From Methanomassiliicoccales archaeon (GTDB lineage: Archaea > Thermoplasmatota > Thermoplasmata > Methanomassiliicoccales > JAAEEP01), in the NCBI GenBank assembly GCA_035529155.1, contig DATKXF010000043.1, positions 1 to 43,732 of the forward strand: a stretch of 43,732 bases of DNA, given 5' to 3'. The translations under genes were made by a program, and so were the position numbers. The notes beneath the pieces were generated by a model. That model searched no databases and had not been told where the DNA came from. It saw only the letters and a list, made by a program, of their open reading frames with translations. The stretch's first letter is position 1; each line of letters opens with the position of its first letter. Below are positions 7,320 through 42,621 of the stretch, one piece after another.

Positions 7320-7988
7320 TCAGTGAAGGAACCCAAAGATACCCATTGCCTTTTTCTCTCCTATACCCGGCACCCTCTGCAGATCTCTTGCACTCGCCCG
7401 AATCAGATTCTCGATGGAACCGAATCGTTCAAGAAGACTGCTGGCGAGCTTATCACCGACGCCGGGGATCATTGAAAGGAACAGCACCCTCTGGTCCTTC
7501 ACAGGGAGTCCGGATGATACCCTCGGTGTAAACCACCTCGGGGGCGGAGTCCGGTCATTGAGACCTTCTGACTCCCTTCTGACGAGCACTCTTAGGAAGG
7601 AGCCCATGCCCTGCTGCCCCTGCACCTGGACAATTGGCACATGGTAGGTGTAGATGCATTCCATCTGAGCCCCAATGACGCTGGCCCAACCCCTTTCATC
7701 GAGAATTGAGTCATCATCATGGGATCTCTCGATCACCAGTATTCGCCTGACCACAGAGGCTCCATCGTACTCGTTCATCCTGGAGAGGGCAATTAATTGT
7801 TCCCACAGCCTTCCGTTCCTGAAGGACGAGATAAAATCCCCAAGGGTCTTTCTCTCGATGGCAATGGCAGTTTCCCCGACCTTTATGATGTAGTCCCCAG
7901 TCTCTAGATGAATAACCCTGATCTCGCCGAGGTCGCCGATGTAGGAAAGAAATCCACTCTCTCTTCTGTCAACGAAGATCTCTATCAT
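7320..7988 (-). CDS. ERCC4/XPF-family structure-specific nuclease, short form with C-terminal (HhH)2
   Basis: 'IFVDRRES', 'LETGDY', 'IAIERKTLGDFISS', 'GRLWEQ' (the GDxnERKxxxD ERCC4 signature). C-terminal tandem HhH 'IPGVGDKLASSLLERFGS...LQRVPGIGEKKA'. The ATG overlaps the rad50 stop (ATGA). Confidence 0.85.
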   Translation of the reverse strand: MIEIFVDRRESGFLSYIGDLGEIRVIHLETGDYIIKVGETAIAIERKTLGDFISSFRNGRLWEQLIALSRMNEYDGASVVRRILVIERSHDDDSILDERGWASVIGAQMECIYTYHVPIVQVQGQQGMGSFLRVLVRRESEGLNDRTPPPRWFTPRVSSGLPVKDQRVLFLSMIPGVGDKLASSLLERFGSIENLIRASARDLQRVPGIGEKKAMGIFGFLH

Positions 7989-10384
7989 GTCTCAAGGACC
8001 AGACCGCTTGAGCCGTCCTCCCCCTCCTTGACATAGATGACGTTTCCCATGAATTCCTTCACGTCGTCTATGTGGGTAATGAGAAATATCTGCTTGAACT
8101 TGTTGGACAACCGGTTCAAGGTGGACAATATGTTCCTTTTCCTGGTCTGATCCTGGGATCCGAAAATCTCGTCGAGTATGAGGAAATCTACGCTGCTTCC
8201 GGATCTATCAGCGATCACCCTTGAAATCGCAAGTCTCAAGCAGAGGTTGGCGAGATCCCCCTCCCCACCAGAATAGCGCTCCAGCCTGAACTTCTCCCCC
8301 CCGTCGAAGATGAAGACGTTGTAATCCTTGTCAATCTCCATGCCTCCGTACTTGGACTCGGTCATCTCGTTGAAAATGGATGACGATATCTCGGAAAGGG
8401 TGGGAACTATCCTGGAGATGAGATTTGACTTGAAGTCCCCCATGAGATTCGCCAAGGTGGTCATCATGAAGATCCTGCCCTCGTAATCTTTCTTGAGCTG
8501 AACCTTCTCCTTCAAAGCCTTCAGCTCGTTCTTCAGGGTCTCCTTTTTTCCATCGAGCACCCTAATCTCCCCGTTGAGTTCGGATATGCGAGCCCCGAGC
8601 TTGTCCCTGGAGGACAGCAGGGTCTCGTACCTTTCCCTCAAAGAGGCCAGCTTCTCCTCGTTATAACCTATGGATTCCAGTTTGATCGCGACCTCGTCCA
8701 TGCTACCTCGCTGGTCAGCCATCGCCTTGTCCAACCCGGTGATCTCCTCTGAAAGTCGAGGGAGCCGCTCGAGCCTGCCCCGTATCTCCCCATATCTCCT
8801 GGCAGGACCCTTCAGATTATCGATCTGCTGCTTGACATCCTCAAAGGACTTTTCATCAAAAGTGACGTCACCCAGCTCTTCAAGTCTGGAAACAAGATCA
8901 GAGATCTCATCGTTCAGCTCGCTCATCTTGTTCTGGCATCCTCTGATCCCTTCCCGCAGTTTGGCTAGTTCGAGTTGGGAAGCCCTGAGTTTCTCGAGGC
9001 GGCTCTCCAGCACCTCTTTCCTTTTGGTCTCCTTCTCCAGATCGATCTCAAGTCTCGATCTCTCCTCTGTGAATTTGTATATGCTCTCCTTGGACTTCTC
9101 TATCTCACTGTTCATCTTATCCAGTAGGAACTGGTGTTGATCCTCGAGCTTCCTCTCGCAAGTAGGGCAATTGCTCTCTGGACCCAATCGATTAATATCA
9201 TCCCACTTGGCAAGGGTTTCGTCCCTCTCCCTGGCTTTCCCTCTAATCTCGGCACCCAGTTCGCTGATCCTTCCCCGTATTCGGGAGATGGAATCCTCGG
9301 CTTGCTTAAGGGCTCCGCTCACCTTGGGGATACCGGTCTCAGGGTCCCCGATACCGGAGACCGATTCCTGACTCCGGCCGATCTTCTCTTCGATGGCTAA
9401 TACCTGGTCCCTGAGGGAGTCCAACCTTTGCTTGATCGACACCATCTCCTGGTATGGGGTCCGGGCTCCATCCATGGTCTCTTTGACCTCGACCAGCCTT
9501 TCCAGCAGTTCGCTCTTCTTCCTCAGGTCCTCCAGCTCACTATTGAGGGTTTCCAGGGTTTGCCTCTCTTTGAGAGCAGACAGCTTCCGATCCTCGAGAC
9601 CTTTGAGGTAGCTCCTCTTACCCGCAAGTTCTCTTTGCATCCTGTGGAACTCGCCTTCGATGGACACCAATGCATCCCTCTCCTCCCTTACCTCAGCGAT
9701 ATGCTTGTCCACCTGCTCTCTCTCGGCCTTTACCGATTCCATGTTATTTTTGTGAACATCCACGATTCGTTCGATCTCCTCGATGTCCACCATAATCTTC
9801 TGTGTTCTGTCCTTTCCCTCTCCATCCAGCAGCATGTCCGAATATGCCCTGACCTGGCTCTCCAGTCCTGATCTGTCGGTCCTGATCGAGCTGATGACCC
9901 TATCGAGGACGTCGATGTCCAACATTCTCAGGATGAGTTGCCTCCTCTCTCCTGGAGGAAGGATCGAAAGGGCGTCAAGGTCCTTCTGTCTAGCGAACAC
10001 CGAAATGAAGAATGCCTTGTAGTCCATTCCAAGTCTTTCCGCGAGAACCTGGATGACAGCCCTGTCACCGTCCGCCTGCAGTTGATTGTTGATGTCCAAG
10101 GTGACCATCATCTTCAGGTCCTTACCACGCATCTCCCGATGCACCCTATATTGATCGCCATCCATCTCAAATTCTAAGAGTACTGAGCACTCATCCCCCG
10201 GCGAAGCTCCGGTCCAGCGTACCTCTTCCTTGCTAGTCCTCTGGGCATCATTGCCGTACAAAGCCCATGAGATAGCCTCGATTAAGGTGCTCTTTCCAAC
10301 ACCGTTGGGGCCGATGATGCCTATGACTCCATCCGGGAACTCAACTGCCGCGTGTCTGAATTTACGGTAATTGTGAAGCTCCAT
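7985..10384 (-). CDS. rad50: DNA double-strand break repair ATPase Rad50
   Basis: Walker A 'GPNGVGKST', a long E/K/L-rich coiled coil, a central zinc hook 'CPTCERKL', the signature 'YSGGE', and Walker B 'FLILDE'. Confidence 0.95.
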   Translation of the reverse strand: MELHNYRKFRHAAVEFPDGVIGIIGPNGVGKSTLIEAISWALYGNDAQRTSKEEVRWTGASPGDECSVLLEFEMDGDQYRVHREMRGKDLKMMVTLDINNQLQADGDRAVIQVLAERLGMDYKAFFISVFARQKDLDALSILPPGERRQLILRMLDIDVLDRVISSIRTDRSGLESQVRAYSDMLLDGEGKDRTQKIMVDIEEIERIVDVHKNNMESVKAEREQVDKHIAEVREERDALVSIEGEFHRMQRELAGKRSYLKGLEDRKLSALKERQTLETLNSELEDLRKKSELLERLVEVKETMDGARTPYQEMVSIKQRLDSLRDQVLAIEEKIGRSQESVSGIGDPETGIPKVSGALKQAEDSISRIRGRISELGAEIRGKARERDETLAKWDDINRLGPESNCPTCERKLEDQHQFLLDKMNSEIEKSKESIYKFTEERSRLEIDLEKETKRKEVLESRLEKLRASQLELAKLREGIRGCQNKMSELNDEISDLVSRLEELGDVTFDEKSFEDVKQQIDNLKGPARRYGEIRGRLERLPRLSEEITGLDKAMADQRGSMDEVAIKLESIGYNEEKLASLRERYETLLSSRDKLGARISELNGEIRVLDGKKETLKNELKALKEKVQLKKDYEGRIFMMTTLANLMGDFKSNLISRIVPTLSEISSSIFNEMTESKYGGMEIDKDYNVFIFDGGEKFRLERYSGGEGDLANLCLRLAISRVIADRSGSSVDFLILDEIFGSQDQTRKRNILSTLNRLSNKFKQIFLITHIDDVKEFMGNVIYVKEGEDGSSGLVLET

Positions 10385-10389
10385 GTATC

Positions 10390-11511
10390 TCAGTCTGATT
10401 CTTCCAGCCCCCTCGTTAGGTATTCCAGACCCTTCTCCTGCAGAGAATCCTTATCCACTTTCTCCACTGGATAATGTTCAAGGAAGGTGACGAACTCGTG
10501 TTCCAGGGAGTCAATTCTGGAGCTGGTCCATTGGACCGAAATTCCATCCTGTTTCATCTCGAACCTACGCTCGAAGTGCATCGCGCCAGAGCTGAGCTGA
10601 TCGATGCGATGGAAGTCGAGCGCTCTGTAGGTGCTCGAGGGGATGTTCCTCACCACCAACCTCACTATCCTCCCCTGGAGTTCCTGGCCTTCTAATAGGT
10701 CAACTATCTCCTTCTGGAGGGAGGAATGGTCCATCTTGTTAGCGTCCAGGGGACCGAGGTCGAGCATGGGCCTTGTCCAGAGTTCATGGAACAACCTAGT
10801 TCCGCTCTCCAGGTCCACCTCCAAAAATCCCTTCCTCTGCCTTGCCTCGGAGAAGGAGAATCGCTCTGTGGATCCCGAGTAGCAGGCGTTGTACATTACC
10901 TCGCTGTACTCGTGAAAGTGCCCCAATGCTATGTAATCGAAATCAGGTCTGAGATATGACGTGTTGATTAACTGCTCGTTGAACTCATCCATCTTGAAGA
11001 CCCCGAGTCCGATCACGCCTCCATGTAGCATGGCCACATCGTACTTCTCCTTCCTTGAGGGCTTTAACAGCTGAAGCTGCTCGTGGAGGTTATCCCCCTC
11101 CGTATGGGGCATAGCGTGGATGGTCATATCCCCAATTTCGATTTGCTCTAACCTCCCGCGGAAGACTGGGTGAATGTCCCTGATGTAATCGAAAACCCTC
11201 ATAACCGACCCGGTCTCCCGGAGTCTAGGCGTTGAATGGTTCCCCGCGATCACCACCACGGGTATCCCCGATTCCGTCAGCCTTATCAGTTGGTCAAGTG
11301 CGAAGGTGAGCGCCCTATTCGTAGGCCTGACCGAGTCGAAGAGGTCGCCACTATGCAGGACCGCGTCGGGCTTTAATTCAATGGCCTTGTCGACGAACCG
11401 CTCGAAGGCGTTGTACACGTCGACCTCTCTCTGGTTTAGTCCGGTCTCCTCGTCGACCTTTCTATACGTCGTATAACCCAGATGCGTGTCTGAGACGTGG
11501 ACTATCCTCAA
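10390..11511 (-). CDS. mre11: DNA double-strand break repair nuclease Mre11
   Basis: Calcineurin-like phosphoesterase motifs 'HVSDTHLG', 'SGDLFD', 'AGNHS', 'MLHG' and 'GHFH'. It lies 5 nt upstream of rad50. Confidence 0.95.
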   Translation of the reverse strand: MRIVHVSDTHLGYTTYRKVDEETGLNQREVDVYNAFERFVDKAIELKPDAVLHSGDLFDSVRPTNRALTFALDQLIRLTESGIPVVVIAGNHSTPRLRETGSVMRVFDYIRDIHPVFRGRLEQIEIGDMTIHAMPHTEGDNLHEQLQLLKPSRKEKYDVAMLHGGVIGLGVFKMDEFNEQLINTSYLRPDFDYIALGHFHEYSEVMYNACYSGSTERFSFSEARQRKGFLEVDLESGTRLFHELWTRPMLDLGPLDANKMDHSSLQKEIVDLLEGQELQGRIVRLVVRNIPSSTYRALDFHRIDQLSSGAMHFERRFEMKQDGISVQWTSSRIDSLEHEFVTFLEHYPVEKVDKDSLQEKGLEYLTRGLEESD

Positions 11512-11672
11512 AATTCACCCCTCTCGTTCAACGATGCCTCAATCCCTAATGTCAATGCTTTTTAATATGATTATCAAGACCCCTCTGAAATTACCGTTGA
11601 GAATCTACTTCTCCTCTTGCCTTTTATCAATTCCGCAATTCCTGCAGTCCATTATGAAAGGGTCACGCACTC

Positions 11673-13217
11673 CTAGAAGAATCGGAAGTCCTTCTCCGAT
11701 GTCTTGATATCCTCTTTGCTATCGGCATTCGATGAAGATAGTTCTTTCCCAAGCCTCTCCTCGTAGAGATGGACCTTCACTGGTACGGCGAAGGGTGTGA
11801 ATGGCGAGGCGATCAGAGCCTCTCCTGGCATGAGCATCTGTATCTCGTTATCGAGTCGGGATACGTCCTGCTTGGCCGAGTCTCTGAGAATGCTCCTGTC
11901 CCTCTTATCGGCTAGTCCCAATATGAACAGCGTGTTGAACTGGGAGATGATTTCCTCATCTATCAGCTTGGGCTGCTGCGATACCGCGCAAAGGCCCACC
12001 TTGAACTTCCTCCCCTCCCTGGCGATCTGGGCGAAGACCGATCCTTTCGCCTCTGATAGGACACGCTGGGCCTCCTCCATGGCGATCAGCACTGGAGGGA
12101 TGCGGTCGAAGGCTCCCTTGTCGGAATACATCGACTTGTTCTTCTCGAAGACGGCCCTGGATAGAACTGTGGAAATCAGGAGTTCCTCTGCTTCGAACAT
12201 GTTCGAGGTATCCACCAGTACAACCTTACCACAATGGAGGCAGTCCATGATGTGTCTGGTCACCGATAGCTTGGGATCGGTGGTGATGAGCCCGAACTGG
12301 AATATGCTTTCCAGCCTCCTCTTGATGACGTTGATCGTCCCTTCGTGGAACCTTCCCGACAGATCTTCCGATATCTCTGATACTCCTTTCTCGTCAAGAT
12401 CGACCAACCAAGACTCGCCGTATTTGAACTGTGCCGCCTGCAGGCACTCCAGCTGTGGTTGCGTGAACTCGTAGAGGTTCTGCAGGTCGGCGATCTCGAT
12501 TTCCCTTGCAGCAATACGAAGGGAGTTGTAAGGGCCGTCCAGTGGTCGTGAGCTGAATACCTCCAGGGAATTCTTCACTTTCGCCTGAGAGAGTCCCATT
12601 TTGCCCTTCTCGCCTCCGTCGTAGTACTCGCCATGGGGATCCATGATCAGAAAACCGTATGTCTTAGAATGCATGCAGGAGAGGGCCAGGTTCTTCATCA
12701 GGTTGCTTTTGCCCATTCCGGTGGTGGCGAATATCCCGATGTGGTGTGGTATCGCCCTTCCGGATATGCCAACCGAGAAATCGAGAACGCTATCTCCAGA
12801 CCGAAGATTGCCCACCTCGATATCTCCAAGGAAACGCTCTAGGAAACGGTAGTCCTCCTCTGTCGCCCTTCTGACCTTCGAGAAGTGTGAAGGCAAACTC
12901 TTTGTCTTCCTGAAGACCTCCCCCTCGATGTACCCCAAAGGAACGCACACGCCAAGACGATAGAGCCGGTCTTGATAGAGGGACGGATCACCATGACCCC
13001 CGGCGTCCTTTGCCAAGAGCTCTCCAGCCTCCTTCTTCATCCAGTCATCTCGCTCGGCGTCCGCCCCGTACTCGATGTCCATGACCCTGATAAGGTACTT
13101 TGTTCCATTCCCATCATCGTCAACGATGAGCATCTCGCCGACCTGAAGAGGTTCATCACAGCCCGCTCTGAAACTGGTCTCGAGAACCCTGTTCCCCACT
13201 ACTCGGCCCATGTGCAT
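11673..13217 (-). CDS. herA: HerA-type (FtsK-HerA superfamily) hexameric helicase/ATPase
   Basis: N-terminal barrel-like segment, Walker A 'GIFATTGMGKSNL', Walker B 'VLIAMEEAQRV', and position upstream of mre11-rad50. Confidence 0.85.
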   Translation of the reverse strand: MHMGRVVGNRVLETSFRAGCDEPLQVGEMLIVDDDGNGTKYLIRVMDIEYGADAERDDWMKKEAGELLAKDAGGHGDPSLYQDRLYRLGVCVPLGYIEGEVFRKTKSLPSHFSKVRRATEEDYRFLERFLGDIEVGNLRSGDSVLDFSVGISGRAIPHHIGIFATTGMGKSNLMKNLALSCMHSKTYGFLIMDPHGEYYDGGEKGKMGLSQAKVKNSLEVFSSRPLDGPYNSLRIAAREIEIADLQNLYEFTQPQLECLQAAQFKYGESWLVDLDEKGVSEISEDLSGRFHEGTINVIKRRLESIFQFGLITTDPKLSVTRHIMDCLHCGKVVLVDTSNMFEAEELLISTVLSRAVFEKNKSMYSDKGAFDRIPPVLIAMEEAQRVLSEAKGSVFAQIAREGRKFKVGLCAVSQQPKLIDEEIISQFNTLFILGLADKRDRSILRDSAKQDVSRLDNEIQMLMPGEALIASPFTPFAVPVKVHLYEERLGKELSSSNADSKEDIKTSEKDFRFF

Positions 13218-13326: not shown

Positions 13327-13518
13327 TCAAGGGTTGGAATTTACTTCTAACCTCATGATCCTCTTTGCCATGTCCTCTAGGAGGGGCCATGACTTGTAAT
13401 CACAGACCATCGCAGGTAGGGGGCAGTTGTGGCAGGTGAGGCTATCTAGCATCTCTTTCTCCGCACCGTACATGTCAAAGTAGCAACCCTTAGGGCGCAT
13501 CTCGCAATCGTTCTGCAT
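13327..13518 (-). CDS. Small Cys-rich hypothetical protein (63 aa)
   Basis: ATG ORF with five Cys (including 'CHNCP'), on the same strand as herA and 109 nt upstream of it. Codon usage looks coding-like. No recognisable family. Confidence 0.35.
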   Translation of the reverse strand: MQNDCEMRPKGCYFDMYGAEKEMLDSLTCHNCPLPAMVCDYKSWPLLEDMAKRIMRLEVNSNP

Positions 13519-13717
13519 TTTATCGATTTGAAAATTAAAGACATCTAGTACTTAATCATGGCTGGGTAACCAAAATTCTGGGATGATTAGTTCAGCATTG
13601 GATTCCCATGGCCCAATCCTTATTAATCCAAATCGGGATTGACCCGACGTGTCGCGAAGGGGCGTCTCCTCACCGTTCTTCAAACAGTCGCAAATCACAG
13701 GCCCTGGGCAGTTCAAG

Positions 13718-14638
13718 ATGAGCGAGCCCGAGCTCCATCTGATGGGAGAAGATGAGCCCAGGAGAAAGCCGACCATAAAGGTCATTGGTGTGGGGGGAGC
13801 GGGATGCAATGCCATCACCGATTCACCTTTCAATAACATTGCAGTCTGCACCGCATTGGAGGACACTCGGGCGGTCAGGCTTGAATCACGTGTCCTGGTA
13901 AACCCCGACCATATAGATTTCATGAAAGAGACCCCGTTCAGGACAGTAAGGTCCATCAAGTTCGAATTCAAGGATTGGTTGGAGGAGGCGGTGGGCGAGC
14001 CAGACATCGTCTTCGTCTTTGCGGGTCTCGGGGGAGACACAGGTAGCTACATCGCGCCGGTGGTGGCTGACGTCTGTAAGAAGAAGGCAGGGCTATGCAT
14101 CTCCAGCGTTGCCCTTCCATTCTCAGTCGAGGGAAAAGACCGCAGATGCGTGGCCGACTGCTGCCTGACGAAAGTATGCGAAGCCTCGGATATCACCATG
14201 ACCTATCCCAACGACCATCTGCTAAAGATGGTCCCCAACCTTCCACTGGGAAAGGCATTCAATGTAATGAACCGGATCATGATGGTGCCTTTGTTGGAGC
14301 TGGAGAAGGTTCTTACGGTTGGAGACCTTGAGGTGGTGAGACGGGATTTCACTCGTTCCCATTCCTGCCGCCTTGGGGTGGGAACAGGATCCGGAGAACT
14401 CGGTGAACTGAGGGCTCTTGAAGAGGCGATAACCTCTCCATGGTTCGACTTTGATAAGGATCGCGTCATGTCCGCCCTGGTAACGATATCCTCAGGCGAG
14501 GTGGAGGAGGAGGCTGTGTGCAGGGTGCTCGATGAGCTGAGTAAGAGAATGCCCTATGCCCGAATCAACTACGCAGGAATATGCGACAAAGATCTGGGCG
14601 CCAAATACAAGGTCATGTTGGTTCTGGGATTCGCGTGA
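13718..14638 (+). CDS. Divergent FtsZ/tubulin-family paralogue with degenerate GTPase loops and no C-terminal tail
   Basis: 'IKVIGVGGAGCNAI' (T1), 'FAGLGGDTGSYIAPVVAD' (T4-like), 'ALPFSVEGK', 'YPNDHLLKMVPNLPLGKAF', 'LTVGDLEVV' (T7-like). I prefer the ATG at 13718 over the GTG at 13649. Confidence 0.8.
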   Translation: MSEPELHLMGEDEPRRKPTIKVIGVGGAGCNAITDSPFNNIAVCTALEDTRAVRLESRVLVNPDHIDFMKETPFRTVRSIKFEFKDWLEEAVGEPDIVFVFAGLGGDTGSYIAPVVADVCKKKAGLCISSVALPFSVEGKDRRCVADCCLTKVCEASDITMTYPNDHLLKMVPNLPLGKAFNVMNRIMMVPLLELEKVLTVGDLEVVRRDFTRSHSCRLGVGTGSGELGELRALEEAITSPWFDFDKDRVMSALVTISSGEVEEEAVCRVLDELSKRMPYARINYAGICDKDLGAKYKVMLVLGFA

Positions 14639-19022: not shown

Positions 19023-20099
19023 TTGAAGTCAGCAACGAAGTCAATGATCCTCGTCGTGATACTGGGAATCGTAATTATCTCGATAAGTTACATGGTTCTC
19101 TTTTCACCAAAGGAGAATAGAACAGAATATCCAATTCCAGTCACGGATGCGCTTGGAAGGGAGATTACTTTCGAGGAGGTTCCAGAGAGGATAATATCCG
19201 CGGCTCCAGCAAACACCGAGACGGTCTTTGCCCTGGGGCTGGGTGAAAAGGTTATCGGAGTCACCGATTGGTGCGATTGGCCCTCAGAGATGGTCAGCAT
19301 GAGGGACAATGGAACGATAGAGTCCGTCGGCGACTACTGGGGACCAAATATTGAGAGGATCATCAACCTTGAACCTGATCTTGTTGTACTCAGCGAGGGT
19401 GTCCCCTCTCACGGGCAGGTCGCTGAACAGCTGGGTCATATGGGTATCAAATGTTTCGTTACCTGGAAGGGAGAGAACCTCACTGAGATCTACCAGAACA
19501 TAGAGACCCTAGGTGAGATTTGCGACCGAATAGATGCCGCGTCAGACCTGATAGAGTCCATGAAGGACAGGGTGGATGCTGTAGAAAATGCGATTGCCGG
19601 ACAGAGTCCCATAACTATGTTTCATGCGGTTTGGCTTACTCCAGTCTTTACCTGTGGAGGTGACACCTTCGTTTCAGAGGTCATCACGTTGGCAGGTGGA
19701 GAGAACATCTTTGCAGACCTGAACGGTTGGCCGACAGTTAGTATCGAACAGATCGTAGCCAGCCAGCCGCAGGTTATTACAATAACCGCGACGATGATGT
19801 TTTCCAACCCAGAGGATATCATACAGATGCTTGAGGATGACCCGCTTTGGAGTGAAGTACCAGCAGTTCAGAACGGCATGGTGTACATTCTCCTAGATCA
19901 GGGAGAGAACATCTTCAGCCGACAGAGCGTGAGGATTGTTGATGCCATGGAACTTCTTGCGGAGATACTATATCCAGAAGCTTTTGGGATTACGGTGCCC
20001 AATGTCATTGGCAATGATTACGTGGACTACTTATCCTCACAGACGTCAGGGTCAGTGACGACGGTTCTCGAAATGCAGGACAGCGTCGGATATGTATGA
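19023..20099 (+). CDS. btuF: ABC transporter substrate-binding protein, BtuF/FhuD (cobalamin/siderophore) class, N-terminal TM anchor
   Basis: TTG start 8 nt after GGAGG. N-terminal hydrophobic anchor, 'RIISAAPANTETVFALGLGEKVIGVTDW' and 'NLEPDLVV' are typical of the PBP type 8 family. The symbol is assigned from the cobamide gene context. Confidence 0.75.
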   Translation: MKSATKSMILVVILGIVIISISYMVLFSPKENRTEYPIPVTDALGREITFEEVPERIISAAPANTETVFALGLGEKVIGVTDWCDWPSEMVSMRDNGTIESVGDYWGPNIERIINLEPDLVVLSEGVPSHGQVAEQLGHMGIKCFVTWKGENLTEIYQNIETLGEICDRIDAASDLIESMKDRVDAVENAIAGQSPITMFHAVWLTPVFTCGGDTFVSEVITLAGGENIFADLNGWPTVSIEQIVASQPQVITITATMMFSNPEDIIQMLEDDPLWSEVPAVQNGMVYILLDQGENIFSRQSVRIVDAMELLAEILYPEAFGITVPNVIGNDYVDYLSSQTSGSVTTVLEMQDSVGYV

Positions 20100-20113
20100 A
20101 AACTGGTGTATGA

Positions 20114-21157
20114 ATGGCCAATTCCGTGATCGAGCAGAGACGACTACGATTGATATTGATCTCCATCATCGGAATCGTCGCCCTTTTCATTTTCTTCATT
20201 TCTTACCTCTCAGTCGGTGCGGTGGATTACGGCTTCTTCGAGGTCATGGACGCTCTGTTCAGTGCAATTGCAAAGGGCGGTCAGGATCTGACCCCAATCG
20301 AGGCTATCGTATACCATGCCAGGTTTCCCAGGGCTCTGGGAGTCATTGGGGTAGGGATAGGGCTATCCGTAGCCGGAGTGGTTCTTCAAGCGATCATAAG
20401 GAACCCCCTGGTGGACCCCTATATCACCGGGATATCATCCGGAGCAGGACTTGCCGCGGCAATCGCTATGTCATCGGGCATAACCTTCTTTGGGTCCCTC
20501 ATCTTCACGGTTCCCATCGCGGCTTTCATCGGAGCGATTGCGGCCTTTACCTGCACCATCCTTCTTGCGGAGGCATCGGGCGGTCGACCCATAACCTATG
20601 TTCTATCAGGAGTGGTTGTGGGTCTAGGGTTATCGTCGTTCACAACCATGATATTGGTGTTCTCAGGGGACCAGGTGCAAGGCATTCTTTTTTGGCTCTT
20701 CGGAAGCTTCACTGGAGTGTCGTGGAGCAACGTCTGGATCATTCTCATACCAATACTAGCCCTGACTCTTGGCATTGGATTGTATGCCAGAGAGCTGAAC
20801 CTCATCCTGCTGGGCGACGAGCAGGCTCGGCAGCTGGGCCTCAATGTCAAGAGATTCAAACTCCTGTGCATGGTGCTGACATCGATTCTGACAGCCTTCA
20901 GCGTTGCATTCACCGGTATCATAATGTTCCTGGGGCTCATCGTGCCCCACATCTCGAGGCTGATAGTGGGGAGCGATCACCGGATTCTACTACCCATGTC
21001 AATGCTCATGGGTGCAAACATCTTACTCCTGGCCGACATCATGGCCAGGGTGGCCGCAAGGCCCATGGAACTCCCAGTCGGTGCGATAATATCCCTGATT
21101 GGGGCTCCGTTCTTTGCATACCTCATGATACGGAAGGGGAAGGAATATGTCGGATGA
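20114..21157 (+). CDS. btuC: FecCD/BtuC-family ABC permease
   Basis: Polytopic membrane protein with 'RNPLVDPYITGISSGA', 'LGDEQARQLG' and 'VGAIISLIGAPFF', which are typical FecCD motifs. Confidence 0.85.
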   Translation: MANSVIEQRRLRLILISIIGIVALFIFFISYLSVGAVDYGFFEVMDALFSAIAKGGQDLTPIEAIVYHARFPRALGVIGVGIGLSVAGVVLQAIIRNPLVDPYITGISSGAGLAAAIAMSSGITFFGSLIFTVPIAAFIGAIAAFTCTILLAEASGGRPITYVLSGVVVGLGLSSFTTMILVFSGDQVQGILFWLFGSFTGVSWSNVWIILIPILALTLGIGLYARELNLILLGDEQARQLGLNVKRFKLLCMVLTSILTAFSVAFTGIIMFLGLIVPHISRLIVGSDHRILLPMSMLMGANILLLADIMARVAARPMELPVGAIISLIGAPFFAYLMIRKGKEYVG

Positions 21158-21953
21158 GAATGGCAATTCAGTCATGATCAAGATCGAGGGAGTTAGATTC
21201 TCCTATGGCAGTGTCGAGGCGCTCAGGGGACTGACCATCGAGGGCAAGAGAGGTCAGTTCATAGGGCTTATCGGCCCGAATGGATCGGGTAAAAGCACTC
21301 TGCTTCGCTGTATAAATGGCATCCTGAAACCGAATGCTGGATGCATATTGGTGAATGGTCATGATGTACGTAAGATGAAGATCTCAGAGATGGCCCAGAT
21401 GTGTTCGAACGTGCCTACGGAGTTCCCCGACGACTTCAATCTCACAGTTCAGGACCTCGTCTTCACGGGCCGTTACCCATATGTTCAGGCACTCTGGTGG
21501 GAGAAAAAAGAAGACGAGGACATAGTCATGAAAGCTCTCCACGACTTCCAAGTGCATCACCTCAAGGATCGCAAGATCAGCGAGATCAGCAGTGGTGAGA
21601 GGCAGCGTGCCCTACTGGCCAAGGCCGTTGTGCAGACCCCCAAGGTCATGCTGGTGGATGAGCCATCTGCCCATCTGGATCTCAAGCACAAACTGGAATC
21701 CATGGAGCATCTCCGCTCCCTGCTGGCCAATGGCATCTCGATCATAGCGGCATCTCATGACATCAACCTCCTTGCTAAGTACTGCGATAAGGTGATCATT
21801 CTCAGCAAGGGAGAGATAGTGGCCTTTGGTGATCCAAACGACGTGATCACTAAAGACCTGATCAGAGAAGTATACGGCGTGGAAGCAGATGTCATCAGGA
21901 ACAACGGGAGCATATTCATCATTCCCAAGAACACAGTGAAATCAGAGACCTGA
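21147..21953 (+). CDS. btuD: ABC transporter ATP-binding protein (BtuD/FepC-like)
   Basis: Walker A 'GPNGSGKST', signature 'SSGERQR', Walker B 'VMLVDEPSAHLD'. It overlaps the permease gene by 11 nt. Confidence 0.85.
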   Translation: MSDENGNSVMIKIEGVRFSYGSVEALRGLTIEGKRGQFIGLIGPNGSGKSTLLRCINGILKPNAGCILVNGHDVRKMKISEMAQMCSNVPTEFPDDFNLTVQDLVFTGRYPYVQALWWEKKEDEDIVMKALHDFQVHHLKDRKISEISSGERQRALLAKAVVQTPKVMLVDEPSAHLDLKHKLESMEHLRSLLANGISIIAASHDINLLAKYCDKVIILSKGEIVAFGDPNDVITKDLIREVYGVEADVIRNNGSIFIIPKNTVKSET

Positions 21954-21966
21954 AACAGTTGATATC

Positions 21967-23079
21967 ATGGATCCAAGTTCAATAGTCAGAAAGGAGATAC
22001 TATCACTTCAGAAACCTTTTCATGGGGGCACAGCCTGGAAGCTGGGCGAGATCGAGGACTTCAGCTCGAACCTGAACCCTCTCGGTCCACTACCGTGTCT
22101 GGGCGAATTGATTGCCGAATATGTGCACGAGGTGGATCACTATCCAGATGATCACTCCATGGATTTCAGGGAAGCCCTGTCCGATCATTACAAGGTGCCT
22201 ATCGACTGCGTGATCGCTGGAGCGGGATCCTCAGAGCTCATCAGGCTCTTCCCGGAGGTATTCATCTCTCCGGGGGACGAAGTACTCATTCCCCTGCCCG
22301 GTTTCTCCGAGTACACCTTTGGATGCAGGCTGATGGGTGCCAGCATCAAGAACTTCCATTTGACCGGGAATAACGACTTCAGGGTGAATTATGACGAAAT
22401 ACTCAGCAAGCTGGACGAAGGTCTGAAGGCGGTCTACCTTTGCAACCCCAACAATCCAACCGGCAGGCTGGAATCAAAGAAGAACATCCTTGAGCTCGCG
22501 GAGGAGCTAGAGAAGAGGAATGCGCTTCTCTTCCTCGACGAGTGTCTTCTGGAGCTTGTGGAGGGGAGTCAAAATCATACCTGTGCAGTTGAGGTCGAAT
22601 CTCATAGTAACATGTTCATCATCAACTCGCTGACGAAGTCCTTCGGGTTCCCTGGTCTCAGGGTGGGCTATGGCATCGGCAGCCTGGGGGTAATCGCTCA
22701 GATAGAGAAGGCTCGGCTATCATGGAATATGGGGGGAATCGAGCAGAGGGTCGCAGCCTCCTGCGTCAGGGATCACTATTCCCATGTGACTAAGGCAAGT
22801 AAGATCATCGATGGCGAGAAAAGAAGGATGTCCGAGGCGCTCAAGACAATGGGAATGTCAACAGCCTCAGTACCAGATTCGTTCTTCTTCTTCACCTCAC
22901 TTAGGGATTTTGGCTTCTCTTCGGCCGAGTTCAAAGACCAAATGCTGAAGCAGGGAATCATGGTAAGGGATTGCTCATCCTTCGGCAATGATTGCGAGAA
23001 TTACACCCGCTTCTCGGTCAGGACCAGGGAAAAGAACGACATATTCCTCTCCGCTTTCAAGAGGGTGTTGGAGAGCTGA
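21967..23079 (+). CDS. cobD: L-threonine-O-3-phosphate decarboxylase (class I/II aminotransferase fold)
   Basis: N-terminal 'HGG...DFSSNLNPLGP', 'NPNNPTG' and 'SLTKSFGFPGLRVGY' form a CobD-type pattern. The gene lies immediately upstream of cbiB. Confidence 0.8.
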   Translation: MDPSSIVRKEILSLQKPFHGGTAWKLGEIEDFSSNLNPLGPLPCLGELIAEYVHEVDHYPDDHSMDFREALSDHYKVPIDCVIAGAGSSELIRLFPEVFISPGDEVLIPLPGFSEYTFGCRLMGASIKNFHLTGNNDFRVNYDEILSKLDEGLKAVYLCNPNNPTGRLESKKNILELAEELEKRNALLFLDECLLELVEGSQNHTCAVEVESHSNMFIINSLTKSFGFPGLRVGYGIGSLGVIAQIEKARLSWNMGGIEQRVAASCVRDHYSHVTKASKIIDGEKRRMSEALKTMGMSTASVPDSFFFFTSLRDFGFSSAEFKDQMLKQGIMVRDCSSFGNDCENYTRFSVRTREKNDIFLSAFKRVLES

Positions 23080-23088
23080 GTTCGATGG

Positions 23089-24084
23089 GTGAGAACCATG
23101 TACGATATTGTCATTTACGGGATCATCATCGCTCTTGGCGCTCTTGCCCTCGATCTGGCCTTCGGTGAACCATCGAACAGGTTCCACCCAGTAGCTTGGA
23201 TGGGGTTATTCATAAGGGCCATCGATAACAGAATACCCCGGGGGAGTAAGGGCGAGAGGGCTTACGGTATTCTGCTGGCCTTTGTCACGATCCTTGTTTT
23301 CGTGCTCCTCTTCACGGTAGTTCTCGGGGCGGTGCGATTGTTCCTTAGCGCGACCCTCTGGGCAGTGCTGTGCATGATCGTTCTCAAGATGATGTTTGCC
23401 ATACACTCGCTCTCCGTTCATGTCAAACCGATCCAGAGCGCACTTGAGGCAGGAGATCTGGAAGGTGCGAGGAACGGTGCGAGAATGGTGGTGAGCCGCG
23501 ATGTTAGTGAACTCGATGCTCCGCATCTTATCTCATGTGCCTCCGAGACCGTGGCCGAGAATCTGGTCGACAGCATCATCTCTCCAATGTTCTTCATGGC
23601 TTTCGGGGGCGTACCCGCAGCCGTGGGACTCAGGGCGGTGAACACTCTGGATGCCATGGTGGGCTACGAGAATAAAAGAAACAAGGAGGTTGGATGGTTT
23701 TCTGCGAAATTGGATGATATCCTGCATTTCATTCCTGCTCGCCTTTCCATACCATTCATCCTTCTAGCATTGAAGCTAACGGGAAACGACTGGCATACTG
23801 GATGGAGAGCGGCCCGAAGAGACCATGTGAGGACCAAGAGCCCTAACAAGGGCTGGCCCATGTCTGCCGTTGCGGGAGGGCTTCGATTCCAGATGGAGAA
23901 AAAAGGCAACTACCTGCTAGGGGAAGGGAATCTACCTCAGAACCCCGAGATGATAATGGAAACCTATAGGGTAGTGAGGCTCACGGCACTAATCTTCTTC
24001 TTCGTGTTCGCCCTTCCCCTCTTCGTACTGATCGGAATACATGTTCAGATATTGATTGAGAATGTACTGCTTTCACCATTCTAG
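23089..24084 (+). CDS. cbiB: Adenosylcobinamide-phosphate synthase
   Basis: Membrane protein with 'GEPSNRFHPVAWMG', 'ESIAENlvDsiisPmFf'-like 'ETVAENLVDSIISPMFF', 'NTLDAMVGY' and 'SPNKGWPMSAVAG'. Confidence 0.9.
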   Translation: MRTMYDIVIYGIIIALGALALDLAFGEPSNRFHPVAWMGLFIRAIDNRIPRGSKGERAYGILLAFVTILVFVLLFTVVLGAVRLFLSATLWAVLCMIVLKMMFAIHSLSVHVKPIQSALEAGDLEGARNGARMVVSRDVSELDAPHLISCASETVAENLVDSIISPMFFMAFGGVPAAVGLRAVNTLDAMVGYENKRNKEVGWFSAKLDDILHFIPARLSIPFILLALKLTGNDWHTGWRAARRDHVRTKSPNKGWPMSAVAGGLRFQMEKKGNYLLGEGNLPQNPEMIMETYRVVRLTALIFFFVFALPLFVLIGIHVQILIENVLLSPF

Positions 24085-24096
24085 GAGGAACAGATA

Positions 24097-25212
24097 ATGG
24101 ACGTTAAGGTTGAATTTCATGTCATCGATGGCGGTGATGTCGCCGTCGTGCGCTTTCCATTCAAGATGAGAACATTGAGCTCCGCCATAGTTGGCGGCGG
24201 TCTCTCCACCGCGGAAGCCGCTGTGATCATGCAGGTTCCCACGAACTACACCGACGATGCTCCTGAGAGAAGGCTGGAGGAAGTTTGCGACCAGCTCGGA
24301 CTCGGGAAAGAGGTGGTGGGATTCATGACAGCAGCTCATGTCAAGAAGGTCTTCAGCGTCTCGAAGGAGGAGAAGGACGGTGCTGAGGCGGTTGTGGTGG
24401 CCACCGCTGGCCTTAGCAACGCGGTGGTGGCAGGAGAGATACTTCCCATGTACACCCTGGCGGACAGTTTCAAGGCGGGAACCATCAACATCCTTGCTAT
24501 GGTCAACATTCCCTTGGAGGATTCTGGGATGGCAAACGCCTTCATTCCCATCACCGAGGCCAAAACCTCGGCCATTCAGGAACTCGGTGCCCGGGCTACC
24601 GGAACAACTAGTGACGCGGTGATGGTGGCCTGTCCGGAAGGATCGACTTTCAAGTACGCGGGTACCGCCACTAATGTTGGTATAGCTCTGGCAAGGGCCA
24701 CCAAGAAATGTGTTTTGGAGTGTCTCACAAAGAACGGAGACGGTCCCAGGCCGACCGACTACGTGATGAGGTTGGAGGAGAGGGGAGTGACCTTCGAGGA
24801 CATGTGGGATGCCGCTCAGTCTCTCTACTATCCCAACCCGGATTGGGACACCGCGAAATTGAAGGAGATGTTCGAGTCCAGGATCAATGCGTTGAGGGAT
24901 GACATCAACGTCAACGCCCTGATACTCAGCGCCATCGCACTGGATGAGAGGGGAGAGGCCGGGAGATTGTACGGCCTTCCAAGAGCTCAGTACCTGGAGG
25001 ATCCAGTTCACCTGCTGGCGGATGAGATGATAGCCATGGCACTGGCACAGTACATCTCCGGTACCAAGGGTCTTTTTGAATATACACGATATGATAGGAA
25101 GAAACCAGGGATACTGGCCGAGCTTCCGCCTTTCCTTGACGACGTCGTTGCCGCATTGATCGGCGGGATCATGTCAGACATCTACACAAGGTTGCTGGAG
25201 GGAGGAGAATAG
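24097..25212 (+). CDS. cbiZ: Adenosylcobinamide amidohydrolase CbiZ fused to a C-terminal PgpA/CobZ-like phosphatase domain
   Basis: The N-terminal ~220 aa is CbiZ-like (RTLSSAIVGGGL..., TAA.V..., GTINI., TEAKT.A, TGTTSDAV). The C-terminal ~150 aa ends 'LPPFLDDVVAALIGGIMS', resembling the PgpA 'DDIVAG' motif. Confidence 0.75.
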   Translation: MDVKVEFHVIDGGDVAVVRFPFKMRTLSSAIVGGGLSTAEAAVIMQVPTNYTDDAPERRLEEVCDQLGLGKEVVGFMTAAHVKKVFSVSKEEKDGAEAVVVATAGLSNAVVAGEILPMYTLADSFKAGTINILAMVNIPLEDSGMANAFIPITEAKTSAIQELGARATGTTSDAVMVACPEGSTFKYAGTATNVGIALARATKKCVLECLTKNGDGPRPTDYVMRLEERGVTFEDMWDAAQSLYYPNPDWDTAKLKEMFESRINALRDDINVNALILSAIALDERGEAGRLYGLPRAQYLEDPVHLLADEMIAMALAQYISGTKGLFEYTRYDRKKPGILAELPPFLDDVVAALIGGIMSDIYTRLLEGGE

Positions 25213-25226
25213 GCGTAGGAAATGCA

Positions 25227-26045
25227 GTGAAGGCTCTGTTCTCGCTCTTCACCGTTGTCCCGGTGAACTCCAACATGGCAGATTTCGAGGACCTCTCCAG
25301 AAGATTCTGGCTTCTGCCTATCATCGGGGCATTCTTCGGCATCATCGCCTCTTTGGCCCTATTAGTTTCTTCAGAGGTATTCTCCCTATTCCTGTCAGCC
25401 GTCCTGGTGGTCTTCATTCTGCAGGCCGTCAACAGATTCCTACACTTCGACGGCCTGATGGACCTAGGAGATGGATTGGTTGCCCACGGCAATCAAGAGA
25501 AGAAGCTGGGAGCGATGAAGGACAGCTCGATTGGGGCTGGCGGGGTCGCCTTCGCCCTTTTCTTCACACTACTCTCGATCGCCGCCCTGGCATCGCTTCC
25601 TCCTCATCATCCGGCGCATATTCTGATAATCGCCCCCTTTGCTGCTGAGGTGCTCTCACGAAACGCCATGCTGGTCTGCACCTCGATGGGAAAACCCAGG
25701 CCAGGGCTTGGAAGCACCTTCGTGTCCAACACCTCACGGGGGGCCATCATCCCATCATTCGTGATATCTCTGGTCCTGCTGTCGGTCGGTTGGTACCTGC
25801 TTGTCGCTGGGTCGGAGGGGGCGTTCGCTCTCCTGGATTCGACCATGATATCACTTCCCCCGTACATCTGGACCACGGCGTTGTCCTTGATCCTCACTGC
25901 GGTATCCTTGCTGGTCGGGTGGGTGATGGCAAGGATCGCCCTGCGTAGTTTCGGCTGTGTCAATGGGGATGTTATCGGGGCAACCAACGAGATAACCAGG
26001 CCGGTGATTCTGATGGCGATCACTCTTCTGGTGGTGATCCTATAG
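25227..26045 (+). CDS. cobS: Adenosylcobinamide-GDP ribazoletransferase (cobalamin synthase)
   Basis: GTG start. Polytopic protein with 'FTVVPV', 'HFDGLMDLGDG' and 'GDVIGA', which are CobS motifs. Confidence 0.9.
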   Translation: MKALFSLFTVVPVNSNMADFEDLSRRFWLLPIIGAFFGIIASLALLVSSEVFSLFLSAVLVVFILQAVNRFLHFDGLMDLGDGLVAHGNQEKKLGAMKDSSIGAGGVAFALFFTLLSIAALASLPPHHPAHILIIAPFAAEVLSRNAMLVCTSMGKPRPGLGSTFVSNTSRGAIIPSFVISLVLLSVGWYLLVAGSEGAFALLDSTMISLPPYIWTTALSLILTAVSLLVGWVMARIALRSFGCVNGDVIGATNEITRPVILMAITLLVVIL

Positions 26046-26686
26046 CCGTCGATGCCATAATCACATCGGGAGGAAGGGGCACCCGAATAAAGGAGCTGGG
26101 CATCGAGAAGCCCATGATCAAGGTTCTGGAGAAAAGCATAATCGAGAGGGTGCTTGAGGCTCTCAAGGGGGCAAAAGGGGTCCGTGATATCTTCGTCTCG
26201 GTCAGCGACAACACTCCCTTGACCAAAAGGTTCGTGGATCATCTCGGTTACACTACCATACCCACATCCGGCAATGATTACGTCAAGGACCTAAGGGCTT
26301 CGATGAGGGAGCCATCATCCAGGGCCGTTCTGGTATGTCCTGCAGACCTTCCGCTGCTCACAAGCAGTTCAGTGGATAGTCTTGTATCGGAATACAAGAA
26401 GGCTGGATTTCAATCCTTGGCCGTTGCGGTTCCATCTCAATGCATCCTGTCAATTGGTCTGGAGGCGACCTTCGAGATGGAGGTCAATGGTAGTCCCGTC
26501 GTCATGTGCGGGGTCTCGGTCGTAGACAGGAAGGCAATGCTCTCAGGGAAGTATCTGAAAGAGGGATATTTCATCTCCCAGAAGATGGATTTTGCCCTCA
26601 ACGTGAATTCGGTCCAGGAGCTCAAGCTGGCCGAGCGAATCCTCGAGAAGAGGTTTCACTTTTCTAGATCAAGTATGCGAGCGTAG
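26042..26686 (+). CDS. cobY: Adenosylcobinamide-phosphate guanylyltransferase, archaeal CobY type (start codon unresolved)
   Basis: The frame is open from 25949. 'VDAIITSGGRGTRI..LGIEKPMIKV' is the nucleotidyltransferase GGxGxR loop and aligns by eye with the archaeal CobY N-terminus. It lies upstream of the first ATG (26114), with no ATG/GTG/TTG available. 26042 is an ATA. Confidence 0.7.
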   Translation: MAVDAIITSGGRGTRIKELGIEKPMIKVLEKSIIERVLEALKGAKGVRDIFVSVSDNTPLTKRFVDHLGYTTIPTSGNDYVKDLRASMREPSSRAVLVCPADLPLLTSSSVDSLVSEYKKAGFQSLAVAVPSQCILSIGLEATFEMEVNGSPVVMCGVSVVDRKAMLSGKYLKEGYFISQKMDFALNVNSVQELKLAERILEKRFHFSRSSMRA

Positions 26687-27825
26687 TTCTCGTCGATCTT
26701 CTCCAGGAGAGATCTGCATGTAATGGTTCCATTGGAGCCGAGGATTGCTGCCACCGATACCCCTCCGGCACCGGCACCCTCCTTCACCAAACCGGTCTCG
26801 TATATCCTGAGCCCATCGTACTTGGATTCGGAGAAATCAAGGTTCACGGCCAAAATCGGAACTTCTGCGGATTGGGCGACTAGCGAGATCATGTCCGACT
26901 GCTTGTCCTCGATGATCCAGCGGGTTGTCCCCAGGGCAATGTTCTTCAGCACCTCGGGTTTCATTCCCTTGATGACAGCGAGAACGGCCGCCATTTGGGT
27001 GCCTCCCGCCATGATGACCGGAACGCTCAAAGCCGCTCCCGCCACCAATCCTGCGGCGGCAGGCATCATTGGGTCGCCGACCACAGCCACAGCATCCAGG
27101 ACCCCTCGAATCTGTTTCCCATCCGCTTTAGCGGCGGTCAATCCCTCCCGTACCACATTGATCTTGAGATCGTGAGGGTTCTGAGGGAAGCTGCTACTCT
27201 CCTTTCCCTCTGCATCGTATCCGAGGGCCAGAAGTACTCCGAGAGCGGTGGTCGTCCCGCCAGGGGTGCTCTCTCCCACCACGAGGTAATCAACGGTCTT
27301 TGCCAAGTTCTTGCCAAGAAGGAAGGACTCCTCGAACACCTCCTTGGGATTCTCGACGGCTTTACCAGTCCGGATATCCCCCCCGGGTGTTCCTCCGACC
27401 TCGAAGTAGGGGGTGAATGGAAGTACCCTGCATCCTCCGTTGACAACGAAGATGGGCATTTCTGCCAGCTCCAGCGCGGACATGGTTATGATTGCAGGGG
27501 TGGGAATGCCATCCGGAGTGACCGGTACTCCGTCAATGACCTTGCACTTGCCGTAGTGCAGGAGCTCCATATCCGCAGCGGGGGTGTAATCCGTGAACTC
27601 TGGATTGGCACCTGCTGCTGAGATTCCTGGTATCTTAGCGGTCTCGGTGTTCCCGATGACACAAACAAAGGCGGGCTTCTTTCCCTGCACTTTCTTCACA
27701 AACTCTTCCGCCTTGCTCTGGTTTCCGCATATGATGATGTCCTTGGGGGCGCACATTTCAACATCTCCATAGAAAACCGTCTTGAAGCTCAAAGACAATT
27801 TTACAGTCTCATCCCGAGAGTACAT
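26656..27825 (-). CDS. cobT: Archaeal-type nicotinate-nucleotide--dimethylbenzimidazole phosphoribosyltransferase (UPF0284 family)
   Basis: 'FVCVIGNTETAKIPGISAAGANPEFTDYTPAADMELL' and 'VVGESTPGGTTTA' are typical of archaeal CobT. An alternative start is the ATG at 27756. Confidence 0.8.
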   Translation of the reverse strand: MYSRDETVKLSLSFKTVFYGDVEMCAPKDIIICGNQSKAEEFVKKVQGKKPAFVCVIGNTETAKIPGISAAGANPEFTDYTPAADMELLHYGKCKVIDGVPVTPDGIPTPAIITMSALELAEMPIFVVNGGCRVLPFTPYFEVGGTPGGDIRTGKAVENPKEVFEESFLLGKNLAKTVDYLVVGESTPGGTTTALGVLLALGYDAEGKESSSFPQNPHDLKINVVREGLTAAKADGKQIRGVLDAVAVVGDPMMPAAAGLVAGAALSVPVIMAGGTQMAAVLAVIKGMKPEVLKNIALGTTRWIIEDKQSDMISLVAQSAEVPILAVNLDFSESKYDGLRIYETGLVKEGAGAGGVSVAAILGSNGTITCRSLLEKIDENYARILDLEK

Positions 27826-37706: not shown

Positions 37707-38362
37707 CTGCTTCTTATCCTCCGCAAGATCTCCTTTGGATTGTCAATGACCGCCCGCTTCACCTCATCTTCCGACATTCCGGCTCCTTTGGCAACCTGCC
37801 TTGCCCTTTCCTCAGATATCAGGTCGGTGTCAGTGTGGGCGTCGGTGTTCACCACCGTCTTAGCTCCGACCTCACGCGCCACCAGAACCACATGCCCGTT
37901 GGTCAAACAGTGACCCCTCCGGGAGGAGATCTCAAGGGTTATGCCGTTGTCCTTGGCCAGCTGGGCTTCCTGGATAGTGATGAAACCAGGATGTGCAAGG
38001 ATATCTACCTCGGGGTTCTTCACAGCTGCCAGGTTGGTCCCGGGTTCAGTGGGTTCGGCCAATGATTCCCCATGGACCACAATGAGCTCAGCTCCCAATT
38101 TTCGGGCTCTGGAGACCAGGTCATCGATCCTATCCACAGGGACGTGGGTTACCTCCACTCCAAGCACGGTCTCTATCTCCCATGATCCAGCCAATTGGCA
38201 GTCCCTGGCTGTCTCCTCGATCACCCTGTCGATTGTGGAGAGGGAGACGTGGTCTGTGAACGCAATACCCCCAATGCCGATTACATCGGCCCTCCTGGCC
38301 AGTTCTATGGGGAGCAGCTCTCCATCGCTCAGCAGGGTGTGGGTGTGAAGGTCGATTCTCAT
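37703..38362 (-). CDS. PHP-domain metal-dependent phosphoesterase (candidate histidinol-phosphatase)
   Basis: '[12 protein letters not shown]', 'FTDH', 'HGES', 'LAHP' and 'NTDAH' are PHP motifs. Translationally coupled between hisIE and lysC. Confidence 0.7.
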
Positions 38363-39713: not shown

Positions 39714-39714
39714 C

Positions 39715-42609: not shown

Positions 42610-42621
42610 TCTTCACACCCC

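Follow-up and report, generated by a model that had tools for sequence, protein, structure and literature searches.

The window analysed here is a stretch of 43,732 nucleotides (nt) from a Methanomassiliicoccales archaeon (contig DATKXF010000043.1, positions 1 to 43,732, assembly GCA_035529155.1). It contains a locus where herA, mre11 and rad50 lie together on the same strand, followed by a 222-amino acid (aa) open reading frame (ORF), here called xpf. An earlier sequence-only reading had placed these four genes in this order on the minus strand: order and coordinates all hold, and the ATGA at 7985-7988, the 5-nt gap between mre11 and rad50 and the 161-nt spacer containing 'atattaaaaa' were each confirmed in the sequence. 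The features of the locus are the following:

7320..7988, minus strand: xpf, 222-aa ORF, predicted stand-alone short XPF/Hef-type endonuclease
7985..7988, minus strand: rad50/xpf start/stop overlap ATGA, formed by the rad50 TGA and the xpf ATG
7985..10384, minus strand: rad50, 799 aa
10390..11511, minus strand: mre11, 373 aa, TTG start
11512..11672, minus strand: herA-mre11 spacer, 161 nt
11673..13217, minus strand: herA, 514-aa HerA/FtsK-type ATPase
13327..13518, minus strand: small Cys-rich ORF, 63 aa, directly upstream of herA
13649-14638, plus strand: tubulin/FtsZ-family gene (Pfam Tubulin 7e-16), divergent from herA

Base composition was uniform along the whole window, and no tRNAs were found in it. 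The nearest species-level genomes were Methanomassiliicoccaceae metagenome-assembled genomes (MAGs); HerA was 68% identical to that of M. luminyensis and 61% to that of Ca. M. intestinalis, and near-identical DNA was present in soil, estuary and subsurface metagenomes. The source is an uncultured soil or sediment member of Methanomassiliicoccaceae, and its herA / mre11-rad50 locus is an ordinary chromosomal one for DNA-end processing.

The 222-aa ORF matched the Pfam ERCC4 family (PF02732) over residues 6-132 with 55 bits (cutoff 24, 1.1e-14), and its C-terminus matched HHH_5 (47.9 bits, 1.9e-12) and HHH_2 (43.3 bits) over residues 170-221. The protein is thus laid out as an ERCC4 nuclease domain (~1-140), a linker (152-162) and a tandem helix-hairpin-helix region, (HhH)2, at ~166-221. 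The sequence contains the motifs VDRRE, GDY and ERKTLGD; across a 20-sequence alignment, D7, R9, E10, D32, E45, R46, K47 and D51 did not vary. No Pfam match to the NurA domain (PF09376) was found in the ORF. The sequence-only reading had assigned it to ERCC4 with a C-terminal (HhH)2, not to NurA, and had proposed profile searches against both families; ERCC4 scored and NurA did not, the motifs are intact, and the HHH_5 and HHH_2 matches bear out the C-terminal assignment.

At the subfamily level, the ORF matched the NCBIfam Hef model at positions 571-772 only (4.9e-28, 97.7 bits, cutoff 610) and the Arch_Xpf model with 3e-16 (59.7 bits, cutoff 300), both scores lying far short of the equivalog level. 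It aligned over its full length to the XPF of Aeropyrum pernix (ApeXPF; PDB 2bgw/2bhn) with 1e-14. The AlphaFold model had a predicted local distance difference test score (pLDDT) of 86.9, being poor only at the linker 152-162 and placing helices at 166-221. Searched with Foldseek, this model matched 2bgw_A (6.5e-15) and the Pyrococcus furiosus (Pfu) Hef nuclease 1j24 (TMt 0.81, root mean square deviation 3.0); the matches also cover FANCM/FAAP24, XPF-ERCC1 and Mus81, and no NurA-type structure was among the matches listed. By Pfam, by the ApeXPF match and by its predicted fold, the ORF encodes an ERCC4+(HhH)2 nuclease that is catalytically intact.

Two further elements are absent from this protein. 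An SF2 (superfamily 2) helicase domain is missing, the protein being 222 aa long with its start overlapping the rad50 stop. A C-terminal PCNA-interacting protein (PIP) tail is also missing: in the alignment, the XPF clade of the window stops at '...FLH', in the last HhH helix, while the crenarchaeal-type sequences P0035, P0032 and P0037 run 10-20 residues further (e.g. '...TTLDDFV'). We considered the C-terminal '[IL]xx[FI][LF]H' as a PIP-like box and rejected it, as it aligns to the last (HhH)2 helix of ApeXPF. Separately, the linker (residues 144-165) has clade-wide N144, R151, W152, P162, K164 and D165, giving the motif 'ND..P.ARW[YF]R', which is missing from ApeXPF and could be a partner-binding short linear motif.

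The other three proteins have the features expected of their families. Rad50 matched NCBIfam PRK03918 (1.3e-60, 205 bits) and Pfam AAA_23, SMC_N and SbcC_Walker_B, and its translation contains Walker A GPNGVGKST, the signature YSGGE, Walker B FLILDE and a central zinc hook, CPTC, near residue 405/799. Mre11 matched Pfam Metallophos (3.3e-18) and NCBIfam Mre11_Sulfo (1.5e-37) and carries the phosphoesterase motifs DTHLG, GDLFD, GNHS and GHFH; its ortholog at locus L029 (compared loci are designated by L numbers) has equal length and the same start. HerA matched Pfam DUF87 (1.7e-21) and NCBIfam HerA_Thermprot (9.6e-28), is 43-54% identical to the HerA of nurA-herA-mre11-rad50 operons and is orthologous to it by synteny. 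In the spacer between herA and mre11, the TATA-like 'atattaaaaa' lies at ~11568-11559, ~48 nt upstream of the mre11 start, and a Shine-Dalgarno-like element, GAGGGGTGA, stands just upstream of the mre11 TTG. The spacer is a likely internal promoter for mre11-rad50-xpf. In one of the compared loci (L001, 6427-7600), the Mre11 of MAG CAVSJV01 is broken across three reading frames; as the genes around it are intact, indel errors in the assembly are the probable cause, not pseudogene formation.

The linkage of xpf to rad50 is tight in all six xpf-positive loci. The arrangement mre11-rad50-xpf is also found in L029-31 (XPF 83% identical, fully syntenic), L034 (52%) and L032 (46%). The 4-nt start/stop overlap of rad50 and xpf was seen in 5/6 xpf-positive genomes, as ATGA in the window and L029 and as GTGA in L001, L002 and L034, and in the sixth (L032) the two genes are 5 nt apart. 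The three genes are contiguous in two deep Methanomassiliicoccaceae sublineages, even where herA has moved away: in L032 and L034 a methyltransferase, a Na+/H+ exchanger and a glycosyltransferase lie between herA and mre11, and xpf stays on rad50. No insertion was found inside mre11-rad50(-xpf) in any locus compared, while the herA/mre11 and xpf/DRTGG junctions gained genes several times.

The herA/mre11 junction is an insertion hotspot in L032, L034, L037, L040 and L041, with a cargo of Na+/H+ exchanger, methyltransferase, glycosyltransferase, P-type ATPase with its repressor, and a 1332-aa SdrD-like surface protein; the insertions vary even among close relatives (L001 vs L034).

Four small contigs from a soil metatranscriptome mapped to the region. 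One of them (7876-8135) crosses the rad50/xpf junction, two fall within rad50, one (11243-11500) lies at the 5' end of mre11, and none of the four falls on herA. These contigs, which are weak evidence, are consistent with an mre11-rad50-xpf transcript starting in the herA-mre11 spacer. Coherently with the four-base overlap in five genomes and the short gap in the sixth, the junction contig upholds the tight coupling of xpf and rad50 claimed from the sequence alone. The ratios of nonsynonymous to synonymous substitution rates (dN/dS) against L029 were 0.11 for xpf, 0.13 for rad50, 0.075 for mre11 and 0.045 for herA: xpf is under purifying selection where it is kept.

Related XPF loci were sought with an alignment of 15 closer sequences. 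In an exhaustive HMMER search, the XPF of the window was the sole representative above 50% identity; 16 clusters at 50% identity were found at E<=1e-30, all of them short proteins, followed, at ~79 bits, by a mixture of long Hefs and other short XPFs. Of the 28 species-level loci of the XPF clade, 2, both from Methanomassiliicoccaceae, have mre11-rad50 upstream of xpf. The remaining 26/28 belong to Methanocellales, Thermoplasmata MAGs, Bathyarchaeia, Asgard and 'Thermococci' MAGs. Methanocellaceae have xpf alone amid housekeeping genes. A Thermoplasmata MAG lineage (L005, L013, L014, L018, L023, L024 and L035) has it in a block composed of PolX, NAD-dependent LigA, an NTP-transferase, XPF and phosphoglucomutase, which puts two further DNA-repair genes near XPF. 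The sequence-only reading had named two outcomes that would count against it: the first, a canonical nurA beside a second herA elsewhere in the genome combined with an absence of rad50-ERCC4 linkage from related genomes, is borne out in its linkage half, many related genomes lacking this linkage; the second, a NurA score for the ORF, was not found.

Within Methanomassiliicoccales, five loci have herA and mre11-rad50 and neither xpf nor nurA. Their HerA identities to the window are 76% (L040), 70% (L041), 68% (L037, M. luminyensis-like), 64% (L042) and 61% (L038, M. intestinalis). L040, L041 and L042 retain the full flanks, i.e. the tubulin-like gene, herA ... mre11-rad50, and the convergent DRTGG and acetyl-CoA synthetase genes; L037 retains the upstream half of the window flanks, and the flanks of L038 differ. 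Searching the xpf-negative loci for pseudogene remnants of xpf gave nothing by tblastn at E<=10. On neighbour-joining trees of HerA, Mre11, Rad50 and HerA+Rad50, rooted on L039, the xpf-negative L040 is sister to the window and L029 (100% bootstrap), and the xpf-negative L037 falls within the other xpf-positive group (95-100% bootstrap). XPF pairwise identities mirror the topology of the host tree. The simplest history suggested by these comparisons is an ancestral mre11-rad50-xpf unit, inherited vertically and subject to at least three clean losses of xpf, since the xpf-positive lineages do not form one clade on the HerA/Rad50 trees.

We then turn to NurA, which the sequence-only reading had not seen anywhere in the 43.7 kb. 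Neither the Pfam scan of ~44 substantial ORFs of the window (PF09376) nor a hidden Markov model (HMM) of sister-clade NurA, run on stop-to-stop ORFs of >=70 aa, gave a match, in agreement with that statement. As a positive control, the NurA of L039 scores 29.6 bits against PF09376 (cutoff 21). The sister-clade HMM did not match in any Methanomassiliicoccales locus examined, and nurA is absent within ~10 kb of herA or rad50 in 11/11 Methanomassiliicoccales loci, xpf-positive and xpf-negative. The absence of NurA from the herA-mre11-rad50 locus is family-wide and independent of xpf, because syntenic relatives have herA and mre11-rad50 without nurA or xpf. A word-index search, with a reach limited to close relatives of the probe, returned 17 NurA proteins, none of them Methanomassiliicoccales-like; six are encoded on contigs equal in length to contigs that carry HerA homologs of 52-55% identity. 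A metagenome scan with a NurA alignment, also of limited sensitivity, returned 11 loci, all with 65-73% GC, and no Methanomassiliicoccales-like NurA.

The nearest NurA-bearing relatives also show where nurA sits. The order is nurA-herA-mre11-rad50 in L039, a contig from Thermoplasmatota at a greater distance (HerA 52%), and 8/8 metagenome loci with enough flank have nurA as the immediate upstream neighbour of herA, with mre11 and rad50 coming after. Altogether, 9 loci (L039 and these 8) have nurA next to herA on its upstream side, and xpf is found at the other end of the cluster. The claim that xpf holds the position of nurA is therefore not sustained. In the window, that upstream position is taken by the 63-aa Cys-rich ORF and then by the divergent tubulin/FtsZ-family gene.

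The 63-aa ORF, peripheral to the cluster, has the pattern C-x6-C ... C-x2-C ... C and a dN/dS of 0.087, and is conserved in L029 (83%), L040 (52%) and L041 (51%). It gave no Pfam or PADLOC match and was not found in the L001, L032, L034, L037 sublineage; it may encode a small zinc-ribbon protein. The pair of herA and the divergent tubulin-like gene is kept in all examined loci sharing the synteny of the window (L029, L037, L040, L041 and L042).

Our preferred reading, to which we assign a probability of roughly 0.55, is that xpf encodes a lineage-specific and dispensable structure-specific nuclease that is co-expressed with Mre11-Rad50, an accessory to it and not a stand-in for NurA. Under this reading, mre11-rad50-xpf would be transcribed as a unit from the herA-mre11 spacer. 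XPF, which like other archaeal XPFs is presumably homodimeric, would be co-produced with Mre11-Rad50 and act on the same intermediates. It would most likely trim 3' flaps or non-homologous 3' tails in annealing-type break repair; in eukaryotes, resection that depends on MRN is followed, during single-strand annealing, by the removal of 3' tails by XPF-ERCC1 (PMC8708640). Alternatively, or in addition, XPF could cleave stalled forks, the ends of which would then be processed by Mre11-Rad50 and HerA. The other option of the sequence-only reading, a module joining end processing to flap or fork cleavage, is plausible.

Several points weigh against this reading. The entire neighbourhood is syntenic family-wide, including the convergent DRTGG/ACS/DUF72 genes, and for this reason the conserved adjacency is weak functional evidence. 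In archaea with compact genomes, genes without any relation to each other often overlap by four bases. The RNA support consists of one low-depth junction contig, and DNA may be present in the metatranscriptome it comes from. The repeated loss of xpf shows that Mre11-Rad50 and HerA function without XPF, and the presence of the XPF clade in unrelated contexts elsewhere implies that its core function is independent of Rad50. Both the activity of XPF and its interplay with Mre11-Rad50 are predictions.

The serious rival, which we judge possible and clearly less probable than co-expression as an accessory, is that the adjacency is due to chance or history. In this case, xpf would be the stand-alone Hef/XPF nuclease of the genome, working in fork or excision repair independently of Mre11-Rad50; it would be the nuclease half of a 'split' Hef, placed after rad50 through inherited synteny only. 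The lack of linkage to rad50 in 26/28 species-level loci of the clade agrees with this, as do the housekeeping (Methanocellaceae) and PolX-LigA (Thermoplasmata MAG lineage) contexts, the generally high flanking synteny in Methanomassiliicoccaceae, and the repeated losses of xpf, which left mre11-rad50 undisturbed. The Hef of Thermoplasma acidophilum is a helicase only, without nuclease domain (PMC4838364), a state that fits a split Hef. However, chance adjacency sits poorly with an overlap or 5-nt gap kept in 6/6 xpf-positive loci and with a mre11-rad50-xpf unit that was never interrupted, though both flanking junctions took insertions repeatedly; furthermore, the junction-spanning transcript contig implies co-expression.

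The replacement of NurA put forward by the sequence-only reading, in which XPF would be the nuclease partner of the HerA hexamer and Mre11-Rad50 in a NurA-less lineage, is in our opinion unlikely. It draws on the fact that no NurA was found in the window or within ~10 kb of herA/rad50 in the 11 Methanomassiliicoccales loci, on the two wider NurA searches, which gave no Methanomassiliicoccales-like NurA, and on the place of xpf as last gene of the cluster, which is that of nurA in the canonical thermophile order. However, in the closest NurA-bearing lineages nurA adjoins herA upstream, and so xpf is not in its position; moreover, xpf segregates with rad50 and not with herA, and the five relatives with herA and mre11-rad50 carry neither gene at the locus, a patchy distribution that does not match the family-wide absence of NurA. 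Nor is XPF similar to NurA, which serves HerA as its 5'-3' nuclease, and the limited sensitivity of both NurA searches leaves room for a nurA elsewhere in the genome. It is similarly improbable that XPF is physically recruited by Rad50, Mre11 or HerA as the endonuclease of a NurA-less resection machine.

HerA-type and SMC-type ATPases occur together with nucleases in defence systems. An anti-phage or mobile module, to which the partial PADLOC matches of Rad50 (LmuB/PbeC/mad3) and HerA (defence HerA/mad8) could point, is effectively refuted, as these matches are generic ATPase-domain ones, weaker than those to the Rad50 (205 bits) and HerA repair families, Mre11 and XPF have no PADLOC match, composition is uniform, and the locus lies within core-gene synteny conserved family-wide.

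Among known systems, the closest in layout is the archaeal herA-mre11-rad50-nurA operon of Sulfolobus and Pyrococcus (Constantinesco et al. 2002, 2004 as cited in PMC7776575, PMC8708640); a herA-nurA-mre11-rad50 cluster is described in thermophiles and is absent from Haloferax (PMC7776575). The window shares with this operon herA, mre11 and rad50 on one strand and in the same relative order, with a nuclease gene last, right after rad50. It differs in that the last gene encodes an ERCC4/XPF structure-specific endonuclease, dispensable in the family, in the promoter-like spacer before mre11, and in the displacement of herA in relatives; the closest NurA-bearing relatives, in turn, use nurA-herA-mre11-rad50.

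The protein itself stands between two archaeal types. In reviews, the long form, Hef, is attributed to Euryarchaeota, and the short form of XPF that depends on PCNA to Crenarchaeota and Thaumarchaeota; the XPF of Sulfolobus is a PCNA-dependent 3'-flap endonuclease. Like crenarchaeal short XPF, the protein of the window has ERCC4, linker and (HhH)2 in ~220 aa, no helicase and an intact catalytic motif, and Aeropyrum XPF is its top structural match; unlike it, it has no PIP-box tail, shares only ~28% identity and belongs to a separate small clade with the R-W-[YF] linker motif. It shares with Euryarchaeal Hef the nuclease and HhH2 regions, for which the C-terminal part of Hef gives the highest score, and a fold on which the Pfu Hef nuclease superposes; unlike Hef of Pyrococcus furiosus, it has neither an SF2 helicase nor a long disordered linker and is encoded by a separate gene after rad50. 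The organism belongs to Thermoplasmatota, where the nuclease-less Hef of Thermoplasma is documented. The proposed pathway resembles that of eukaryotic XPF-ERCC1 / Rad1-Rad10 after MRN/MRX, with cutting of 3' tails or flaps of Mre11-Rad50 products in single-strand annealing and microhomology-mediated end joining; it is proposed by analogy, and the eukaryotic enzyme is a heterodimer genetically unlinked to MRE11/RAD50.

Beyond this locus, the window contains a cobamide uptake and remodelling cluster (19023-27825), with genes for a Peripla_BP_2 substrate-binding protein, an ABC ATPase, a class I/II aminotransferase (CobD-like), CbiB/CobD, CbiZ fused to a PgpA-like region, CobS and a MobA-like NTP transferase, and with a DBI_PRT-like gene on the opposite strand. 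Between the periplasmic-binding-protein gene (19023-20099) and the ABC ATPase gene (21147-21953), at the site expected for a FecCD-type permease, a 361-aa ORF (20092-21177, plus strand) had no Pfam match even at E<=1. A histidine biosynthesis operon lies at 38359-43497 on the minus strand, with hisG, a hisC-like aminotransferase gene, hisH, hisA, hisB, hisF and hisIE. The longest hisIE ORF (38359-39345) overlaps hisF (38958-39761) by ~390 nt, and therefore the true hisIE start is probably internal.

The mre11-rad50-xpf arrangement is real and represents a variant, of modest novelty, of the Mre11-Rad50 locus of archaea; it is restricted to a single family and, within it, to some of the members. 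Our literature search found no report of an mre11-rad50-xpf operon and none on the NurA status of Methanomassiliicoccales. The importance of the module is limited by its patchy distribution and repeated loss, which make it clearly non-essential. Two wider observations are not mentioned in PMC7776575, PMC8708640 and PMC4838364: the helicase-less, PIP-less XPF clade in Thermoplasmatota, Methanocellales, Bathyarchaeia and Asgard MAGs, and the highly conserved herA by mre11-rad50 without adjacent nurA in Methanomassiliicoccales, which raises the question of what the nuclease partner of HerA is in this order. The relation of XPF to Mre11-Rad50 is known genetically in eukaryotes and has not yet been seen as an operon. 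If physical recruitment of XPF were true, Methanomassiliicoccaceae would have an undescribed Mre11-Rad50-XPF complex joining resection to 3'-flap/fork cleavage; if co-expression here means co-function, they would offer a natural prokaryotic case of a 3'-flap/fork nuclease wired directly to Mre11-Rad50.

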